Below, piece by piece: positions 3,446 through 12,628 of a stretch of DNA of 64,000 nucleotides; position 1 is the stretch's first letter; every line of letters begins with the position of its first letter. The stretch lies in NCBI RefSeq assembly GCF_000027125.1, contig NC_017626.1, one strand, 5' to 3'. Made by a program: the position numbers and the translations under genes. The notes beneath the pieces are model-generated. The model did no database searches and was not told the DNA's origin. It saw only the letters and a program-made list of their open reading frames with translations. This DNA comes from Escherichia coli 042 (lineage in GTDB: Bacteria > Pseudomonadota > Gammaproteobacteria > Enterobacterales > Enterobacteriaceae).

Positions 3446-4534
3446 TTACGCCAGTACGCCAATTGCCAGCGCGCGATCGATAAAACGAAATATCAGCTCC
3501 AGTTGGGAGCCATACTTATCTTCAAATGCCACTGTATCCGTATGCAGCTCGTTGTGATGCTTTCTGCACAAAGGCAACACAAAGAGATCATGTGCTTTTG
3601 TTCCCATTCCGCCCTGCCCGTGACCAATCAGATGATGCGGATCGTCGGCTGGCATACCGCAGCAAGCACACGGCTGTGTCTTAACCCAACGTGTGTATTT
3701 CTCCTTAACCCAGCGGCGACGTTTAGGCAGCTTCATGAAAGATTCCGGAGACTCTGGATCAACGGTGATGCTTACCACCGTCTTTTCCTGTGGTGATTTT
3801 TGTTGCTGGTGGGCGTAAGGCAACGGTGCAAGATTTTTTGTGCGTTGTTTCAATATGCTGGTGGCGGTCTGCTCTCCCGGTACGATGTCGCTTTCGCGGT
3901 ACACCGAGCAGATTTTTTCCGCTGGTAATCCCAGCGAACGACGCGATACAGCCTCAGGTAGTGCATCCACCACCTGATTGCAGACCGCCCACCAGGATAA
4001 TTCAGCCAAAGATAATTCCCGCTCCTGCGTACCGCTTATTGCGTGACGGATGACGTCAATCACCCATGCTGTCAGATTTTGTTGAGCAAGCAGCTCCAGT
4101 GATTCCGATGTCTGGTCACGCAGTTGGTTGTCGCAGTGCCAGCACAACACCATTGCGCCGGTACCATAACGGTGAATGACTGTTTCAGTGTGATGGTAAT
4201 CGCCATTAGGCCACTGGCAGGATGTAACATGACGTAATAGCCAGTCGGACAATGCGCCAACGCCGCCAGCAGCACGAATCACCCGTTCGTTACTAAAAAA
4301 CGGCAGCAATGTTTTGTCTTCCGCCAGCGGCTGGCGAACGGCAGGAACGACTCCGGATGGCAGATTACGCATGCTTTTTGGTTCCGGTTCCACCAGCACT
4401 CGAGGATTATGAAATATCTGTATGGATTCACGGCCCGGCTTAAGGACCACCAGCCCAAGCTCAGGCACCAGAACAGGTCTAAGTAATACCCGCACGTTAC
4501 CTCCAGATCCGTTGCTGGAAAGTGCGGGACGCAC
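3446..4534 (-). CDS. ydfU: Qin prophage DUF968-type protein YdfU (start may be internal to ORF)
   Basis: 362-aa ORF with CACCGMPADDPHHLIGHGQGGMGTKAHD motif; recalled YdfU. Confidence 0.75.
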   Translation of the reverse strand: MRPALSSNGSGGNVRVLLRPVLVPELGLVVLKPGRESIQIFHNPRVLVEPEPKSMRNLPSGVVPAVRQPLAEDKTLLPFFSNERVIRAAGGVGALSDWLLRHVTSCQWPNGDYHHTETVIHRYGTGAMVLCWHCDNQLRDQTSESLELLAQQNLTAWVIDVIRHAISGTQERELSLAELSWWAVCNQVVDALPEAVSRRSLGLPAEKICSVYRESDIVPGEQTATSILKQRTKNLAPLPYAHQQQKSPQEKTVVSITVDPESPESFMKLPKRRRWVKEKYTRWVKTQPCACCGMPADDPHHLIGHGQGGMGTKAHDLFVLPLCRKHHNELHTDTVAFEDKYGSQLELIFRFIDRALAIGVLA

Positions 4535-4775
4535 GTGGTGGGCGTTCGGAATAAGGCAGCCTGACAGAGATTATCCAGTGCCGATAGTCGAGACTGAGAG
4601 CTTTCTTAACCTCGAACCCGCGCCTGCGGTAAGAATGAATCAGCCATTCGGCCTGTTCTGCAGTGCATGGAGGGTGCTGGAACCATTCAGACTTGAATGC
4701 GTGAGAATACCGCCCGTGCGTGCAGGCAAGAACGGGCGAATTATCAGAATTGTAATATTTTGCGTTGCGTGCCAT
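4497..4775 (-). CDS. rem: Small prophage protein Rem-like
   Basis: 92-aa ORF immediately upstream of ydfU in K-12 order; identity by position and recollection only. Confidence 0.45.
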   Translation of the reverse strand: MARNAKYYNSDNSPVLACTHGRYSHAFKSEWFQHPPCTAEQAEWLIHSYRRRGFEVKKALSLDYRHWIISVRLPYSERPPRASRTFQQRIWR

Positions 4776-4841: not shown

Positions 4842-5093
4842 TTATTCTCCTGAAAAAGCAGAAAAGCCAGCTTTTATTCCGATCTCTTTCAATGCCTGTA
4901 ATGAAGTGACAAACTCACCTTCGCGCAAGATAAATCCGTCCGTGACCCGAGCATCCACAAAATTAATTAACGCAGCCCCATTCTTTCGCAAACACATAAT
5001 GCGGTAATGACTAACAAGATTTCCATTTTCAACGCACACAGCATAGAGGCCATCTTCACAAAAAATTTTACGCAGTTCTTCGATGTTCATCAT
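4842..5093 (-). CDS. Hypothetical protein (83 aa)
   Basis: ORF only; lies downstream of the hokD terminator; no recognisable motif. Confidence 0.3.
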   Translation of the reverse strand: MMNIEELRKIFCEDGLYAVCVENGNLVSHYRIMCLRKNGAALINFVDARVTDGFILREGEFVTSLQALKEIGIKAGFSAFSGE

Positions 5094-5220
5094 CAGAATC
5101 CTTCCGGATAATTAGCTCTCCCCTTTAAGGGACCATCCCTCTTATCCCTGCGCGCTACTTAAGTATTTTTGATTCTATTCCGGCACCGTCCAGAACTTCA
5201 AACGCGTTGAAAATAAAAAC

Positions 5221-5240
5221 AAAAACCCGCCGAAGCGGGT
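5221..5240 (-). terminator. Rho-independent terminator downstream of hokD
   Basis: ACCCGCcgaaGCGGGT hairpin preceded on + strand by A-tract (T-tract on minus strand). Confidence 0.5.
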
Positions 5241-5309
5241 TAAGTGCGGGTGCGTTGAGGATGCCTGCCACATCAGAGGTGGCGAGGGATTTCTCCCCCG
5301 CCGGGTCTC

Positions 5310-5465
5310 TTACTCCTCAGGTTCGTAAGCTGTGAAGACAGCGACCTCCGTCTGGCCGGTTCGGATTCGTACCTCGCAGAGGTCTTTCCTCGTTACCAGT
5401 GCCGTCACTATGACGGTTAAACAGATGACGATCAGGGCGATTAACATCGCCTTTTGCTGCTTCAT
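5310..5465 (-). CDS. hokD: Hok-family small membrane toxin HokD (51 aa)
   Basis: Hand translation MKQQKAMLIALIVICLTVIVTALVTRKDLCEVRIRTGQTEVAVFTAYEPEE; below ORF-track size cutoff. Confidence 0.85.
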   Translation of the reverse strand: MKQQKAMLIALIVICLTVIVTALVTRKDLCEVRIRTGQTEVAVFTAYEPEE

Positions 5466-5536
5466 AGCCTGCTTCTCCTGTCAACGCAAAGCAGAAGTGT
5501 CACCTTCGGTGCGAAACAGAGATGTCATGCTTTGGT

Positions 5537-5824
5537 TCAGAGAATGCGTTTGACCGCCTCGCTATATACTTCCGAGCGTTCTCTTTTCCCAACAGAAATC
5601 ACGAAAACGACAACTTTCTCGTCTATAACCTGGTATACAAGGCGATAGCCTGAAGACCGGAGCTTAATCTTGTAACAATCAGGCATACCACGGAGCTTGT
5701 TTGCTTCAATCCGGGGTGACTCAAGTACTTCAACCAGCTTCTTTTTCAACTGTTCACGTACCGTCGAGCCCAGCTTTCGCCATTCCTTTAGTGCCCGCTC
5801 GTCAAAATCCAGAAAATACGCCAT
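5537..5824 (-). CDS. relE: mRNA interferase toxin RelE
   Basis: 95 aa MAYFLDFDERALKEWRKLGSTVREQLKKKL...; recalled identity. Confidence 0.95.
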   Translation of the reverse strand: MAYFLDFDERALKEWRKLGSTVREQLKKKLVEVLESPRIEANKLRGMPDCYKIKLRSSGYRLVYQVIDEKVVVFVISVGKRERSEVYSEAVKRIL

Positions 5825-6063
5825 CAGAGTTCATCCAGCGTCACACGTACTGGCTTAGGATTACGAAGCCGTTCTTTCACTATCTCCACAAGTTCAGCAT
5901 CTTCATCACTCAGGAGTGTCTGTTTGAACGGCAAGCGTTCATTGTCAGCGATATACTCGAGCATGAGACGAAGCGCTTCAGAAGGAGTTACACCCATTTT
6001 TTCAAGCGCGGCGTAAGAACGCGCTTTAAGTTCATCGTCAATACGCAGGTTAATGCTACCCAT
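5824..6063 (-). CDS. relB: Antitoxin RelB
   Basis: 79 aa MGSINLRIDDELKARSYAALEKMGVTPSEALR...; overlaps relE start by 1 nt. Confidence 0.95.
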   Translation of the reverse strand: MGSINLRIDDELKARSYAALEKMGVTPSEALRLMLEYIADNERLPFKQTLLSDEDAELVEIVKERLRNPKPVRVTLDEL

Positions 6064-6087
6064 GTCTTACACCTCTTGTAATTACAA

Positions 6088-6393
6088 ATGTCATTACAAG
6101 TATCGCACTACAACATGCTTAGGGCAAGTCACGAAGGAAGTCAGAAAGTAGTCGTAAGAACGGTGATCACTGTCCGCTTTGTGCCAGGAGCAGCCATTGC
6201 TAAGTCCATCCTGTATTGTGCAGGTCAGCTCGTTTTTAAAGAGTCCGGCCATCATCTTACTGGTACAGACACCATATACTTTGTGACGGTCAGGCTACAT
6301 ATGCACAACTCAACTTATTCATCTATTTTTTGCTTTAGCATGTCAGTGTTGCTTTCTCGTCGGCGGGTGAGCGGTGACCTGACCTGTCGATAA
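6088..6393 (+). CDS. ydfV: Uncharacterised Qin protein YdfV-like (101 aa)
   Basis: 101-aa ORF at the K-12 position between relB and flxA; identity by length and position. Confidence 0.45.
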   Translation: MSLQVSHYNMLRASHEGSQKVVVRTVITVRFVPGAAIAKSILYCAGQLVFKESGHHLTGTDTIYFVTVRLHMHNSTYSSIFCFSMSVLLSRRRVSGDLTCR

Positions 6394-6595
6394 AGGAACG
6401 TAACACGTTTTATGCAACACCCGCATGCGGCAGAAAATTATTGCCGAACGTTTACCCCTGTCAACAAGCTTTACTTTCTGAGGCGCGCCAGCCCGCGAGG
6501 AAAACAATCTGAACATCAAACAATTAATGACACAAGAAATACGATTAAAGATTTTTTTGTGCATGCCGATAGTGCTTTTTTAAAAGGAGAAATCT

Positions 6596-6928
6596 ATGTC
6601 TGTCACAATTCAGGGAAATACCTCAACCGTTATTTCAAACAACTCCGCCCCGGAAGGAACATCAGAAATAGCCAAAATCACAAGACAAATTCAGGTGCTG
6701 ACTGAAAAGCTTGGGAAAATCTCATCGTAAGAGGGGATGACGACACAGCAGAAAAAAGAAATGGCTGCATTGGTACAGAAGCAAATTGAAAGCCTCTGGG
6801 CTCAACTGGAGCAGTTGTTAAGGCAGCAGGCAGAGAAAAAGAATGAAGACGCGACAGTTCAGCCTGATAAAAAAGAAGAGAAAAAAGACGATACAAATAC
6901 CGCTGGCACCATTGATATTTACGTCTAA
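6596..6928 (+). pseudogene. flxA: flxA interrupted by in-frame TAA at codon 45 (6728-6730); downstream 63-aa frame retained
   Basis: Frame MSVTIQGNTSTVISNNSAPEGTSEIAKITRQIQVLTEKLGKISS-stop-EG-MTTQQKKEMAALVQ... gives 110 codons in one frame, matching recalled FlxA length. Confidence 0.55.
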
Positions 6929-7364
6929 GTGACAGCCGTATTGTGGCCCTCATCGGGCCACTTTTCGCCATCAGCCTTTTCTTTAAAGACATATTATCTT
7001 TGTATCATTTCTGATAGTTAACATTACAAGATATAAGTAATGGACGCACTCCCAATTAGTCTATTTAAATCGCCACGAGTTTAACTGACAACCCATGATC
7101 AATTATGAATTGCAACTATTTCTGTAGTCACTTTTGTGGGGACAGTCCACAAAACTGCCAACTTCCGCTTCTTGCTCTTAGCGGACATTAGCATAGGCTA
7201 TTTACCATAACGCCTCATTACGCGCACCGCCCAGACTGACTCAGCGCGTTTCTGGCATATCCCCGGTAAAACAAGTAACAAACCACCCGAAAATGAACAC
7301 CAGAAACGCGACTTAAGAATCTACCCTATGAATGGATATGCACTCAACCGAATCGATCTTGGTT

Positions 7365-8678
7365 TCAATCTTTTTTATCGGGATCAGGCTTCTTTTTAGG
7401 TAACTTCGGGGGCTTAACTTGCTGATGACTTTGCGTTCGGCGCGTAAGCCAGGGATGGTCAGCTTTAGGTTTAACATAGTATTTTGAGCGTAAATCAATA
7501 CGGGCATTATCCACTCGTTCATGGACACTCTTTTCATCATCCAGTGGTATAGGCTCCGGGCCATCAACATACTTTTCCCAGCCCAGCGCTTTCCCGTCAT
7601 ACAGAACGTTAATTTCACCGTCAAAGTTCTCGCATACAGTAACAACCGAATGCCTAAGTCGATATCCCCGGCCCTCACTGCGTACCTGAAACGCACTGCT
7701 TTTGTACTGGAAAGTGAGATTTTTAGACAGAACGCGCTTCGCCTGTAGGCTGAAGATATAACCCAGTTCCTCTTCAGAATGGTGCACATCAAGATGAGCA
7801 TTATCAGTAGTACGAGGCGACGTAGCGAACCGGTTGTTATAGGCTTCAATAAAGGTCGGCAACCATGCATTTGCTGTTTCAATATCACTGATATTCTGAA
7901 GCCGCATTTCTTTGACCAGCCTGTCCTGTAGTGTCTGATTGGCGCGCTCTACCCGCCCTTTTGCCTGCGGGCTGTTGGCATGGATTGGCTCGATGCCCAG
8001 TGTCTTTATCGCACGAGTGAACTGGGTCAGCTCACCTTCCCGCTCTGGGTTATTTACCCTGAATATACTGTGTCTATCAGAGTAGAGAGCGAGCGGTACG
8101 CCATGATCATTAAGGTAACCCCGGAGGGTTTCCATGTAAGCCCGGGTTGTTTCAGCAGGCACAAAACGCAACGCCATCAACGCACTGGTGGCATCATCAA
8201 TGAAAACGATCAGTGTACATCTGGGGCCTCGATTTTCAAACCAGTCATGAGGTGAGCCATCAATCTGGATCAGTTCACCGTAAGATGGTCGTCGCATGCG
8301 GCGTTGATATATACGGGCAATTTTACGACGGCGTTCACGCCATAACCCCTCTTCTACCATCCACTTTCTGAGAGTTTCAACGGATAAAGATAAACCGTGT
8401 ATCTCGCGCAATTTTTCGCACGCAAACGTAGGTCCAAAATCAGCGTAACGGCCTTTGAGGAGTGAAATTACTGTTGCTCTGAATTCAGTAGAAAAGGAAT
8501 TATTAGGACGCTTTCCACGTCGGTGGGAAACCAGACCAGAAGGCCCTTCATTTCTATACCGTTGCACCAGACGTTTAACCTGCCGAATAGAAATGCCAAT
8601 GCGTGCCGCAGCTTGTTCCTGAATAATCTGAAGTCGGTGGAGTTCCTTATGACTCATCGTAACAGTCTCTTTGATCAT
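7365..8678 (-). CDS. DDE (rve-type) transposase, 437 aa, IS481/ISNCY-like
   Basis: N-terminal HTH (RIGISIRQVKRLVQRY) plus integrase-core DDE region (LIQIDGSPHDWF...LIVFIDDATS...SDRHSIF...GRVERANQTL); absent from K-12 at this position by recollection. Confidence 0.7.
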   Translation of the reverse strand: MIKETVTMSHKELHRLQIIQEQAAARIGISIRQVKRLVQRYRNEGPSGLVSHRRGKRPNNSFSTEFRATVISLLKGRYADFGPTFACEKLREIHGLSLSVETLRKWMVEEGLWRERRRKIARIYQRRMRRPSYGELIQIDGSPHDWFENRGPRCTLIVFIDDATSALMALRFVPAETTRAYMETLRGYLNDHGVPLALYSDRHSIFRVNNPEREGELTQFTRAIKTLGIEPIHANSPQAKGRVERANQTLQDRLVKEMRLQNISDIETANAWLPTFIEAYNNRFATSPRTTDNAHLDVHHSEEELGYIFSLQAKRVLSKNLTFQYKSSAFQVRSEGRGYRLRHSVVTVCENFDGEINVLYDGKALGWEKYVDGPEPIPLDDEKSVHERVDNARIDLRSKYYVKPKADHPWLTRRTQSHQQVKPPKLPKKKPDPDKKD

Positions 8679-9012
8679 GAAAAATCCCCCAGAGAATTGT
8701 CTGGGGACATTTTAGAATGGTTCAAAGGGGACATTACAGCTTGGTGTTAACAATAGCCTGCTTCTCCGTGCCTTTCGGCACGTAAGAGGCTAACCTACAT
8801 GTGTCTAGCATGAAATTGGCCTCAGATTAATGTTAAGCGTCTTGCAGGACGCGTAATGTTAACTGGGGCTTTTCTCTATCTGCCGTTGGTGTCCATGCCC
8901 GAGGCAGATAGCCTCAAGCACCCGCAGTCATTCTACTTAACTAAGATTTCCCCGCAAACCGTTTTTGTCCAGCACAGTAAATATCCAACTAAACCAATGG
9001 AGTTCGCTGTAT

Positions 9013-9192
9013 TTACCGCCAGTATTCAATGCACATGACCGCCATGAACACCCCTAAAAAAAGGGCATTTATATATCCAAATATTAATATCAAAACATCA
9101 ACTTTTTCCATATACCTTGCTGTGAAGATGATGGGCATACATGATGCGAACAACCAGAACGCAACAAACAAAAACTGCAATGCGTTTTTCAT
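9013..9192 (-). CDS. Small two-TM membrane protein (59 aa)
   Basis: AGGAGG 6 nt upstream of ATG; MKNALQFLFVAFWLFASCMPIIF...LILIFGYINALFLGVFMAVM hydrophobic. Confidence 0.45.
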   Translation of the reverse strand: MKNALQFLFVAFWLFASCMPIIFTARYMEKVDVLILIFGYINALFLGVFMAVMCIEYWR

Positions 9193-9446
9193 TATTCCTC
9201 CTACAATCAATGTGCAATTACATTTAAACACACCTCAATTTGGCCGGACATATAAATATCTAAACCAGAAAAAATCACTTACATAGCGTTACAAACTCTT
9301 TAGTCTAAAGGTTCATCGTAAAACATTCCCCATACTTATCAGTCCGTTCCGCGCCAGGTAGCTCATTGCCTTATCTGGCAACCTGTAATCAGGTTTCCGC
9401 TTTTTCAGTTGGCTGGTCGTTTAACCGACATAGTTAATCCATTAAT

Positions 9447-9734
9447 CTAGTTGCCGGATGTTGGTGGATTTTCGCGTTTTAGTTGTTCATAAAAGTGCAC
9501 AGCTTTAACCAGTTCTTCTGATGTAACTGGGACTGGTGAGGCAGTGAATAAGGCCTGAATTTGATAGTTCGGCCTGTCGTTACAATCCTCTTTTTTCGGT
9601 ACATATTTCCAGTCACCAGACCACTACTTCCCCTGAAAGTCCGTAACGCCTTTTTTCACGTAGCGATATCGCCATGCCACTGGTTTTGCTTGCCCCGCCG
9701 TTTCATGCCCTTCCTGATAATTAATCTCGCTCAT
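9447..9734 (-). pseudogene. Prophage ORF with in-frame amber (TAG) at codon 37
   Basis: MSEINYQEGHETAGQAKPVAWRYRYVKKGVTDFQGK-amber-WSGDWKYVPKKEDCNDRPNYQ... reads through a single TAG at 9624-9626. Confidence 0.35.
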
Positions 9735-10344
9735 TCATCGCCCCACTCATCACAATATGCTTCGACCGGAGTTTTTCCCGCTTCATAGTCATCACGCTAG
9801 GATTCGACATCAGCAGCACTTCCACCGCGTAACTCACCATAGTCCATTAATAGTTCATCCCGCTCTTCAAAACTGATGTTATATTTAGCTGAACAAAAAT
9901 CAGCCACTTTGTTCTTCCTCATCGTCTTTTATTTCGTGGTATGAGTAATTGCAGTAGTTAAAGAAAATTTCTTATGCTCCGTCATGAATTTCCTCAGGTG
10001 TTGCGTCATCGTCCACTTCGAATACATCCTCAAAATCTCCACCAGCTATTCCCGTTTCAATAATAATTTTGAACTTTCGCATTTCACTACCGCCCTTTCG
10101 GGCGGCCTCCTGATGTTCTGAGGGTGCAGAAATCCATCCGGTTAAGGATTAAATTTTATTTACAGAACTGAATTTAATTATTCAGATATACGTATCTGTA
10201 GCCTTACGAATCTACTCACTGGATGCCTCTTTCATAAAAATAATCCAGTGGGTTTTATCGTTTTTTCCCTGTTCGTTGACAGATAACAGGTTTTCTGTCT
10301 GTCAGTGCCAGAATCTGGCTTACCGGTATTTGCGTTTCATTCCA

Positions 10345-10701
10345 TTAAAAAATCAGAACGCCGTGCGGCCTCAACACCCGAAAGGCTTCTTTAAATCTCT
10401 GTCGCGAATCATCACGCCAGGCATCTTTATTCAGCCGTCCATATTTCTTTCCCATCCAGGCGTTATCACCAACACTCTCAAGATGCGGAGGGTCTAATAC
10501 AACCATCGAAAAAGATGCGTCTGCAAATGATAATGCACGAAAATCTGCGATAATGTCAGGGCTGATAATCAAGCGTCTCCCATTGCGTAATGTGTATCCT
10601 TCTTTTCTGATATCGCTGAATATCGCCCGTTCGTCAGACTTATCGAACCAGAACATGCGGCTGCCACAGCACATATCAAGAATGGTTGCCGGTGCACTCA
10701 C
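10345..10701 (-). CDS. Small SAM-dependent methyltransferase-like protein (118 aa), probably phage DNA MTase
   Basis: Motif I-like ILDMCCGSRMFW and motif IV-like VVLDPPH; nin-like region of lambdoid prophage. Confidence 0.45.
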   Translation of the reverse strand: MSAPATILDMCCGSRMFWFDKSDERAIFSDIRKEGYTLRNGRRLIISPDIIADFRALSFADASFSMVVLDPPHLESVGDNAWMGKKYGRLNKDAWRDDSRQRFKEAFRVLRPHGVLIF

Positions 10702-11120
10702 TGCGCCACGTCCTGAAAATTACCCTGATAGAAAGCCAGTATGCGCTGCATAACTTCGCTCTTCCGGCACTCGCGACAGATTATGTTTAGGCGACTGTCG
10801 TAGCGACGTATTTCTCCGTCAGGTGATGACCAGATAAGGTCCGGATCAACCACAGCAGGTTTCTTCACCTTTGCCCTCGAGAGTTTTTTGCGGGCGTTTT
10901 GCCAGTCCTTACGCGCCTGTTCAGAGGGGAATAACCCGTAGCCGGAGTTGTATACATCGCCACTGGCTACCAGCTCTCTGGCAAGAACGCTCATCAGATA
11001 TCTAGTCGCACCTGTTTTAGCTTCCAGTTGCCGTAACGTCTCACGGCCGCTCTGGCGCACGAGTTCCACCACCTGCCATTTAATTTTTTCCCGCTCTTCT
11101 TGTGTAAAAACTTTTGCCAC
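10698..11120 (-). CDS. Hypothetical phage early protein (140 aa)
   Basis: ORF in operon with replication gene; stop overlaps downstream gene start. Confidence 0.45.
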   Translation of the reverse strand: MAKVFTQEEREKIKWQVVELVRQSGRETLRQLEAKTGATRYLMSVLARELVASGDVYNSGYGLFPSEQARKDWQNARKKLSRAKVKKPAVVDPDLIWSSPDGEIRRYDSRLNIICRECRKSEVMQRILAFYQGNFQDVAQ

Positions 11121-11160
11121 AAGTCCCCCTTAAAATTACCTCATGACCTGAAATCAACAC

Positions 11161-12126
11161 TTATCCTCTGAAACCAGGCGGAATTTCTGTATCCGGTTCA
11201 GAAATATGATTAACACAACGCTGTACAGGTGAACGTCCCAGGCGGATGACCAGTTCGTCCCATTTTTCGCGGAGCTTTGACGGGCTCATGATGTTTTTGA
11301 CCCAGAATGGATCTCGCTGAACCCGACCAAACATTTCGCAAATTTGTCTGTGGCTTCTGCCATCCAGCATCCGCATTGTGCGCACGTCATTGGCCCAGGC
11401 AGTCCAGTTAGGCTCTTTTGGTCGCATGATCTCGCCATCATCACTGGCTGCCTGTTCGTAGAGACCCACGATCCGCCCCCAGATCCACTGCGCACACGCC
11501 AAATCCTCCCTGCTACCCCACTGGCGTTTTTTCGCACTAAACACAACCGCGTCGGAGTTCCGGGTTAAAAAATCCTGTTCAGTCGTCTGCGGGTCCGGTT
11601 GCGAAGCTTCCGGACGAAAAGTGTTTTTATTCTCTGTAGTAGTCTCTGTTGTATTCTCTGTAAGATCATCAGGCCATTTTGACCCGATGACATTGGGTCG
11701 TTTTGAACCAATGGAGCGTTTCATTTTGACCTCTTCCATCGTGTCATTTTGACCTGATGGAGCGGCGCATTTTGAACCGATGGATTCGCTCAATTTGCCA
11801 CCATCTAAAAGCTCGCTCCCATAGTTGATCGTGTAGAAATTGGTCATATCGCGCTTTGATTTATTGAGCTTTTCACAACGCAAAAGCCCCAGCGTTTTCA
11901 GACTTGCAAACGCGCGCTTTAACGTTGACTCTGACCAGAATGGGAACTGTTCCAGCCATTGTTCCGTTGTGTTATAAATCCAGCGAACACCATCACATTC
12001 CATGCCGGAGTTGGTATCTCTCAACCAGTAGTGCAGTTGTTGCAAAACAATGGCTTCGTTTAAGCCAATTTTCATTGCCAGCTGCGTGTTTATAACCAGT
12101 GGGCGTTCAGCAAAAAGAAGGCTCAT
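11161..12126 (-). CDS. Putative phage replication initiation protein (HTH N-domain)
   Basis: Position downstream of cro-like dicC; N-terminal region LNEAIVLQQLHYWLRD...WIYNTTEQWLEQFPFWSESTLKRAF resembles replisome-organiser HTH domains; start chosen at MSLLFAERP. Confidence 0.5.
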   Translation of the reverse strand: MSLLFAERPLVINTQLAMKIGLNEAIVLQQLHYWLRDTNSGMECDGVRWIYNTTEQWLEQFPFWSESTLKRAFASLKTLGLLRCEKLNKSKRDMTNFYTINYGSELLDGGKLSESIGSKCAAPSGQNDTMEEVKMKRSIGSKRPNVIGSKWPDDLTENTTETTTENKNTFRPEASQPDPQTTEQDFLTRNSDAVVFSAKKRQWGSREDLACAQWIWGRIVGLYEQAASDDGEIMRPKEPNWTAWANDVRTMRMLDGRSHRQICEMFGRVQRDPFWVKNIMSPSKLREKWDELVIRLGRSPVQRCVNHISEPDTEIPPGFRG

Positions 12127-12628
12127 AATTCCATCCAGCTTTTTGTTGGTATTGCTGTCGATACGCAAGTTTGAAAGCAATTGCTTTTTCTATAAGTTCG
12201 TCAGTTTCACGATCCACTACGGCAGGATCAGCAAAAAGCAGTCCGGACTCCACCACATCGCCATATTCTTTGTTTAACCCGGCGATCATGCACGTGATGC
12301 TTTTTCCGTCAGTAATTTCACGATACAACCTGAAATCATTAATCCGGATAGCCTCCATAATTGCAGGCACTAGCGCCGTGAACTTTTCACGCTTATCCCT
12401 GGTGTCGATAGCCTTCCAGCGTTCAAATATCTTCACTCGATTAACGCCAAGCGCTCGCTGATCAATCGCGCCACCTTCATATGTGACACGCTGAACATCG
12501 ATGTTCGGGCGCTCTTTCAAAGCCCAGAATGCTTCAGTGATTAATATCGTCGCCTGCTCCTGTGTCATTCCTGGTCGACATATCCAGGCATCCAGAGCCT
12601 CACGAGCCTGTTCAGGAGTGATTTTCAT
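12107..12628 (-). CDS. Phage early protein, YdfX-like (173 aa)
   Basis: ORF directly downstream of dicC in same operon. Confidence 0.45.
   Translation of the reverse strand: MKITPEQAREALDAWICRPGMTQEQATILITEAFWALKERPNIDVQRVTYEGGAIDQRALGVNRVKIFERWKAIDTRDKREKFTALVPAIMEAIRINDFRLYREITDGKSITCMIAGLNKEYGDVVESGLLFADPAVVDRETDELIEKAIAFKLAYRQQYQQKAGWNYEPSFC

Follow-up and report, generated by a model that had tools for sequence, protein, structure and literature searches.

A probable IS1202-family transposon carrying relBE in the hokD locus of a Qin-like prophage of Escherichia coli 042, and its relatives at type I toxin genes

The DNA analysed here (hereafter the window) is a stretch of 64,000 nucleotides of Escherichia coli 042 (contig NC_017626.1), which includes part of a Qin-like prophage. 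A transposase gene, the genes relE, relB, ydfV and flxA, and the two separated parts of the type I toxin locus hokD lie side by side in this prophage. The segment between positions 5479 and 8752 (3274 bp) is very probably a single mobile unit, a transposon of the IS1202 family and of the ISEsa1 type, inserted in the hokD locus. The features of the target, of the two ends and of the transposase gene are listed below.

5310-5465, minus strand: hokD coding sequence, the target gene; an open reading frame (ORF) annotated as hokD in K-12 and in the empty-site strain, start codon at 5463-5465
5464-5478, no strand: left copy of the 15-bp target-site duplication ATAGCCTGCTTCTCC, spanning the Shine-Dalgarno sequence of hokD and the first two letters ('AT') of its ATG
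5479-5504, plus strand: IRR, the transposase-distal terminal inverted repeat TGTCAACGCAAAGCAGAAGTGTCACC, with a subterminal repeat extending to approximately 5530
7365-8678, minus strand: transposase gene, IS1202-family (ISNCY_2) DDE type, 437 amino acids, from the ORF list and profile matches
8727-8752, minus strand: IRL, the transposase-proximal terminal inverted repeat TGTTAACACCAAGCTGTAATGTCCCC (minus-strand reading), with a subterminal repeat at 8703-8721
8753-8767, no strand: right copy of the 15-bp duplication ATAGCCTGCTTCTCC, a perfect match to the left copy
8752-8923, minus strand: orphaned hokD 5' leader (mok/Sok region), complete as far as the 'AU' of the hok start codon

The two terminal repeats were identical at 19 of 26 positions, and both started with TGT and carried a TGTC block at positions 20-23. 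When the region 5300-9000 was scanned with these repeats, full-scoring matches were found only at the two termini; the next best match (18/26) was the subterminal repeat beside IRL, and no second distal repeat was found near the 3' end of the transposase gene (7100-7364). GGGGACA-like motifs at 7137 and 7182 were considered as a distal repeat and rejected for their wrong orientation and poor scores.

Three classes of locus were obtained in a search of complete E. coli genomes: loci identical to the window across 6700-9300, K-12-like loci matching the window only to 7549, and loci that matched from 8753 onward only and were annotated 'hokD'. At the empty site examined (L002), hokD was followed directly by its own leader, and ATAGCCTGCTTCTCC was present once (4001-4015). 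Positions 5000-5479 of the window aligned with 3537-4016 of the empty site, and positions 8753-9399 with 4001-4646, the two alignments overlapping on 15-16 bp. In the window, the two copies of this sequence are separated by 3274 bp, with TGTCAACGCAAAGCAGAAGTGTCACC at one end of them and the reverse complement of TGTTAACACCAAGCTGTAATGTCCCC at the other. Read on the sense strand of hok, the 15-bp duplication is GGAGAAGCAGGCTAT, made up of the Shine-Dalgarno sequence of hok and the A and T that open its ATG. The Rfam sok model (RF01794) matched the minus strand of 8752-8923 over model positions 1-157 (104.1 bits, E = 1.1e-23) and ended at the junction. This leader was 98% identical to the region upstream of hokD at the empty site, where the Hok ORF and the full-length sok match are contiguous, as in a type I hok locus.

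The transposase gene had been recognised in the initial annotation as that of a DDE transposase of a mobile element, which is correct, and the family, which had been left uncertain there, was identified by a match of the 437-aa ORF to the NCBIfam model NF033594 'ISNCY family transposase' (455.5 bits, cut-off 250). The IS481, IS21 and IS3 models matched the protein weakly. The Pfam domains HTH_28, HTH_29 and HTH_32 were found at the N-terminus, and rve_3 was borderline, at 24.2 bits in the window transposase (Pfam cut-off 26.5) and 28.3 bits in a 446-aa form of the protein. By motif position, as judged by inspection rather than by alignment with family references, the catalytic residues are D140, D161-D162, D201, E244 and Q251. 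Siguier and colleagues described the signature of the IS1202 family as a D1-D2 interval with two additional conserved D residues, together with a Q, instead of K or R, at E+7, and both features are present here. The single transposase of 400-500 aa with an N-terminal helix-turn-helix (HTH), a DDE core and a match to the curated model is that expected of the family, as are the imperfect terminal repeats of approximately 24-26 bp with a 5'-TGT start and a second block near position 20. Duplications in this family fall into classes of 5-6, 15-17 and 27-28 bp (Siguier and colleagues; Harmer and Hall). The duplications found here, 15 bp at the window site, at an IncF, an IncI and an ldr site and 16 bp in two further copies (L062 and L070), fit these classes. 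The element is an IS1202-family (formerly ISNCY) element of the ISEsa1 type, given the 455-bit NF033594 match, the DDE motif with two extra D residues and Q at E+7, and a 15-bp duplication of the 15-17-bp class.

Four passenger genes are located between the transposase gene and the distal inverted repeat.

5537-5824, minus strand: relE toxin gene, cargo; Pfam ParE_toxin, 51 bits, and annotated relE in K-12 and plasmids
5824-6063, minus strand: relB antitoxin gene, cargo; Pfam RelB, 112 bits
6088-6393, plus strand: ydfV, cargo; annotated ydfV in K-12 and plasmids, with no Pfam match
6596-6928, plus strand: flxA, cargo; nonsense mutation TAA at 6728-6730 (G6728T)

The flxA mutation turns GAA into TAA, and the base at this position was G in K-12 and in all 46 other copies fetched. 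The passengers lie inside the terminal repeats, and the whole unit recurs elsewhere with site-specific duplications, as in a unit transposon; the term 'transporter IS' (IS, insertion sequence) could also be applied to it.

Copies of the same 3.27-kb unit were found on an Enterobacter roggenkampii IncF plasmid (L004; 99.65% identical, duplication ATGGCCTTCTTCTCC) and on a Salmonella IncI plasmid (L006; 99.75% identical, duplication ATCATAGCCCCTCCA). Both copies end at the same nucleotides as the window unit and lie between the coding sequence and the leader of a Hok-family gene; the plasmid loci holding units of the window type are hok/pnd loci, with 15-16-bp duplications of differing sequence. 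A variant of 12,843 bp (L008, CP032294.1 81257-94099) was located in the hok locus of an IncFII/IncR plasmid and was flanked by the IncF duplication. The relE-relB end and the transposase end were retained in this variant, and genes for resistance to chromate (chrBA) and to nickel (ncrABCY) lay between relB and the transposase gene. Versions of 4237 and 4600 bp at the IncF site (L070 and L062) had a 16-bp duplication, and therefore represent separate insertion events. In every cargo variant seen, the junction with the transposase core falls within 7160-7198. A 16-nt imperfect palindrome (GTAGTCACTTTTGTGG / CCACAAAACTGCCAAC) was also noted in 7124-7162, and it ends exactly at 7160, the point of divergence between the relBE-type cargo and that with metal-resistance genes.

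Species-representative genomes, viral contigs and metagenomes were scanned for exact matches to the transposase-proximal end, and the 91 loci obtained were pooled with relatives found by protein. Among the 37 distinct 44-nt flanks at this end, 29 were of the hok/pnd type, one was an ldr flank and seven were other sequences, so that type I toxin leaders accounted for 30 of the 37. The hok/pnd-type flanks have the form ...CTCC/TTGCCTTNCGGCA...GGCTA, and approximately eleven different hok-type duplication sequences were present among the flanks. In other copies too, the Rfam sok matches stopped exactly at the element junction. The orientation was constant, with the toxin leader beside the transposase-proximal end and the toxin coding sequence beside the distal end. 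An inverted repeat sequestering the start codon (CATAGCC...GGCTAT) was common to the hok and ldr targets and was clearer than any linear motif. Where the site reads GGACCCATACAACTCC, the start codon is displaced inward by five bases, which suggests that the insertion distance is set from the side of the hairpin and not from the ATG.

Similar insertions were made by more distant relatives. A compact IS of 1448 bp without cargo (L118, Salmonella), whose transposase (P0037) is 76% identical, has terminal repeats complementary at 24 of 30 positions. The distal one of these, TGTCAACGCAAAGCAGAAATGTCCCC, differs very little from the repeat at 5479-5504 of the window, and the homology of the two IRRs spans approximately 50 bp, through the subterminal repeat. 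The perfect 15-bp duplication of this IS, CAAGGCGGCTATATG, terminates at the ATG of a gene for an Ldr type I toxin, and an rdlD RNA (75 bits) was found just upstream, approximately 50 nt outside the other end. Transposases of an approximately 80%-identical clade (P0018, P0023, P0025) and an 87%-identical one (P0006) were at hok sites, at the same nucleotide. All copies of the 80% clade (L123-L139), on plasmids and chromosomes of Citrobacter, Kosakonia and Salmonella, were at hok sites and always carried a convergent ParE-family toxin gene (94 aa) with an 82-aa antitoxin partner beside the transposase gene; the cargo beyond this pair was variable, including ars (arsenic-resistance) genes or GmrSD. 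For a 62%-identical Vibrio relative (L127) the distal end and the duplication could not be defined. Within the clade of transposases at least 76% identical, this group of elements thus inserts repeatedly, in one orientation and at the same position, in type I toxin loci (hok, pnd, ldr), and several of its members carry a type II toxin-antitoxin pair.

Some further observations concern single loci. On a metagenome contig (L080, OLJC01000099.1) two copies of the element were arranged head to tail with only the 15-bp duplication ATAGCCTTTTTCTCC between them, the product expected of a second insertion into the regenerated target. In two copies (L048, L083) the left and right flanks came from different hok loci, indicating recombination between copies at different sites. 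In two other loci (L079, L092) an IS481-family element (393-aa transposase, NF033577, 236 bits), whose end is TGTGTAAGTTCACAC, directly adjoins the duplication at the very point where the hok hairpin would be expected to start.

The ends of the element had been placed differently, and tentatively, in the initial annotation, at about 7000 and 8870, on account of an inverted pair of 12-mers.

7016-7027, plus strand: left 12-mer, internal cargo sequence and not an end
8853-8864, plus strand: right 12-mer, within a hairpin of the hok/sok leader and outside the element, inside the Rfam sok match

The pair does exist, one or two nucleotides from the positions given for it: AGTTAACATTAC occurs at 7016-7027 and inverted at 8853-8864, with no other occurrence in the window. 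If it marked the ends, the element would be an IS of approximately 1.85 kb (7016-8864) between flxA and the phage early region. The pair brackets the transposase gene, and only 4.4% of Markov-1 simulations of 6800-9200 contained two perfectly inverted 12-nt arms separated by 1 kb or more; the pair is uncommon and only mildly unusual, and is not compelling. The right arm was also present in the uninterrupted, element-free hokD locus (L002 position 4101), and the left arm accompanies the element to plasmids and to a phage in which its partner is absent. The two arms are thus functionally unlinked, one belonging to the hok leader and the other to the element. The 12-mers are not flanked by any duplication, and homology with the empty and plasmid sites breaks at 8752/8753, not at 8864. 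These comparisons refute an IS bounded by the 12-mers, to which we attach practically no probability. It was the comparison with an uninterrupted locus, proposed in that same annotation, that gave the terminal inverted repeats and the 15-bp duplication and so placed the ends at 5479 and 8752. Nor does the insertion lie between flxA and the early region: the element encloses flxA, ydfV, relB and relE, and its insertion point is the translation-initiation region of hokD.

A number of observations weigh against a single 3.27-kb unit directed to toxin loci. The ISfinder length of ISEsa1, 1609 bp, suggests a shorter element, and lone transposase cores of approximately 1.6 kb and 90% identity occur without relBE (L077, L089). 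Together with the common joining zone of the cargo variants at 7160-7198, this could mean that a plain 1.6-kb ISEsa1 (approximately 7150-8752) landed beside a relBE-ydfV-flxA block already resident and immobile, the repeat at 5479 being a relic of another element. Such a landing does not account for the three different duplications that surround the whole 3.27-kb unit at three loci, and the 12.8-kb variant is likewise flanked. Moreover, there is no repeat-like sequence near 7150, and for the lone cores, as in the description by Harmer and Hall, neither a distal repeat nor a duplication was found. The left ends of these cores were rejected as true termini, since a 34-nt remnant of a different IS end adjoins them and no duplication is present. 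We consider this second explanation very improbable.

The apparent target preference meets objections of its own: seven of the 37 flanks are not toxin loci, and a small number of old insertions could be the source of many of the hok-type flanks, so that raw counts overstate the strength of the preference. A complete 3301-bp copy in a phage contig (L016, IMGVR_UViG_2912051188_000002) lies at a non-hok site, downstream of a phage Q antiterminator gene, with a flanking repeat of only 6 bp (AAGGCG), which falls short of the usual 15-16 bp by about one turn of the helix. No closer empty site for this copy was found in the phage collection, the best comparison being an 82.7%-identical E. coli site. 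Homologous recombination or plasmid integration might also have carried the element from one hok locus to another, and the preference would then reflect shared hok-locus ancestry. Hok leaders are homologous enough to recombine, and the copies with flanks from different hok loci are recombinant. Recombination, however, makes no exact 15-16-bp duplications that vary by site, and under it relatives with different ends and cargo would not be expected at the same nucleotide. The insertion at the ldr locus, an unrelated target with the same geometry, is also left unexplained, and spread by recombination is accordingly given as little credence as a 1.6-kb IS beside a resident block.

For the transposon inserted in hokD of the Qin-like prophage, the following course of events would fit these observations. 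The transposase, by analogy with established DDE transposases, would bind the terminal and subterminal repeats and cleave at the TGT/ACA ends. The ends would then be joined to the two target strands at points separated by 15-16 bp, next to the small hairpin ahead of the ribosome-binding site of the toxin gene. Cuts staggered by 15 bp across the hok Shine-Dalgarno/ATG region would explain the duplication of this stretch, and the insertion leaves hokD with a ribosome-binding site and without its own promoter, in the known relBEF arrangement. In the window, hokD with one copy of its ribosome-binding site is now 71 nt downstream of relE and is cut off from its own promoter, mok and the Sok region. 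The published relE-hokD spacing and the co-transcription of relBEF agree with this position. On the minus strand at 5220-5301, Rfam gave a weak isrK-like match, with a score (25 bits) under the gathering threshold, and this match overlaps the terminator downstream of hokD.

The stranded hok leader adjoins the transposase end of the element and points into it. A terminator-like hairpin is located between IRL and the start codon of the transposase gene.

8686-8707, minus strand: terminator-like hairpin, from a consensus scan only

This hairpin may block read-through from the leader. Its position just upstream of the start codon weakens the idea that the hok promoter drives the transposase gene, which remains speculation.

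On a wider view, which we favour by a modest margin over its negation, the IS1202 group with transposases at least 76% identical would be dedicated hunters of type I toxin loci. These elements would recognise the Shine-Dalgarno/start-codon DNA beside the sequestering hairpin in hok, pnd and ldr, inserting in one orientation with 15-16-bp duplications and uncoupling the toxin from its promoter and antisense RNA. They would often bring a type II pair of their own (relBE or ParE-type), which could replace the lost addiction, and the textbook relBE of K-12 would be such cargo; 6-bp duplications at non-preferred sites may be made by the same transposase. By hypothesis, the type II cargo would make up for the hok/sok addiction function that the insertion destroys. 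Type I toxin loci are a good vehicle for spread, as they are common on plasmids, prophages and chromosomes. The element is relevant to plasmid evolution and stability, since its larger variants bring genes for resistance to chromate, nickel and arsenic into the hok loci of plasmids.

The copy in the window differs from the plasmid copies by a deletion in the transposase gene.

8617-8627, minus strand: site of a 27-bp in-frame deletion, between short direct repeats, which removes QESINRHIT

The nine amino acids lost relative to the plasmid copies are the first helix of the HTH, and the HTH_28 profile was covered over 16-52 in the window transposase, compared with 1-52 in the 446-aa form. As the first helix of the DNA-binding domain is gone, the window copy is probably disabled and not autonomous, that is, immobile by itself. 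The deleted (3274-bp) and undeleted (3301-bp) forms both occupy the Qin site in different genomes, and the deletion is therefore later than the insertion. At least 80% of 6700-9300 was carried in one piece by 760 of 5426 complete E. coli genomes.

K-12 had been said in the initial annotation to have other content at this locus, which is not the case. The K-12 sequence matches the window with a single base difference up to 7549 (1 mismatch in 3850 nt, with the junction at L001 3850/3851), after which the 4.8 kb from 7550 to 12348 are missing. The K-12 gene ydfW is the last 49 codons of the transposase gene, and ydfX is truncated at the deletion junction. K-12 is thus a later deletion derivative of the arrangement in the window, and the transposon is unrecognisable there because most of the transposase gene, IRL, the second copy of the duplication and the hok leader have been lost. 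This explains an oddity of K-12, in which relBE fused to a truncated hokD ('relF') and the orphans ydfV, flxA and ydfW are the wreck of one transposon.

No description of this transposon, its cargo or its targeting of toxin genes was found in a literature search (ISEsa1; hokD/relBE transposon; hok/relE with ISNCY; ncr/chr transposons), and the element is not mentioned in a 2026 survey of Hok. Insertions of IS150 and IS186 beside chromosomal hok loci were reportedly described by Pedersen and Gerdes (1999). They resemble the present case as insertion sequences that disrupt chromosomal hok regulation. They differ from it in that they belong to other IS families, lie at varied positions and are usually explained by selection, whereas the elements described here are related and lie at one nucleotide position in one orientation.

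The gene order hokD-relE-relB-ydfV-flxA is identical in the window and in the relBEF locus of the K-12 Qin prophage with its truncated hokD. The K-12 locus retains only 'ydfW' of the transposase, while the structure is complete in the window. According to Ramisetty and colleagues, relBE came from plasmids and became integrated in an ancestral hokD/mok locus.

Among known insertion sequences, ISEsa1 is the closest. The 446-aa form is named 'IS1202-like element ISEsa1 family transposase' by the NCBI pipeline, and the hosts are the same Enterobacteriaceae. As listed in ISfinder and cited by Harmer and Hall, ISEsa1 has 1609 bp, repeats identical at 15 of 22 positions, a 439-aa transposase and no duplication found, and it was placed by these authors in a separate small subgroup outside both main IS1202 subgroups. 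The present element has 3274 bp (3301 bp undeleted), repeats matching at 19 of 26 positions, a 15-bp duplication, four passengers and a 437-aa or 446-aa transposase. Delimited by its repeats and duplication, it does not correspond to the ISEsa1 listing, as judged from the published description. Set against that description, the listed left end of ISEsa1 probably falls inside the cargo junction zone and is not a terminus, because all cargo variants join the core within 7160-7198 and lone cores are without a distal repeat or duplication. The standing of ISEsa1 as an odd family member with no detectable duplication is probably resolved in this way, its listed distal end being likely misplaced.

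Target preference in the IS1202 family was recognised by Siguier and colleagues only in the subgroup with 5-6-bp duplications, and the passengers they described were single hypothetical genes. The present element shares its transposase architecture, DDE signature and imperfect repeats with a TGT start with ISAba32 and ISAjo2, which insert at XerC/D dif and pdif sites, and with ISTde1, which makes 15-17-bp duplications. As in these subgroups, insertion is oriented and at a fixed distance from a conserved short palindrome, with one copy of the duplication in between, and the duplication is of the 15-17-bp class. The target here is the translation-initiation region of type I toxin genes and not a Xer site, which adds a second kind of precise target choice in the IS1202 family to that of the dif/pdif sites.

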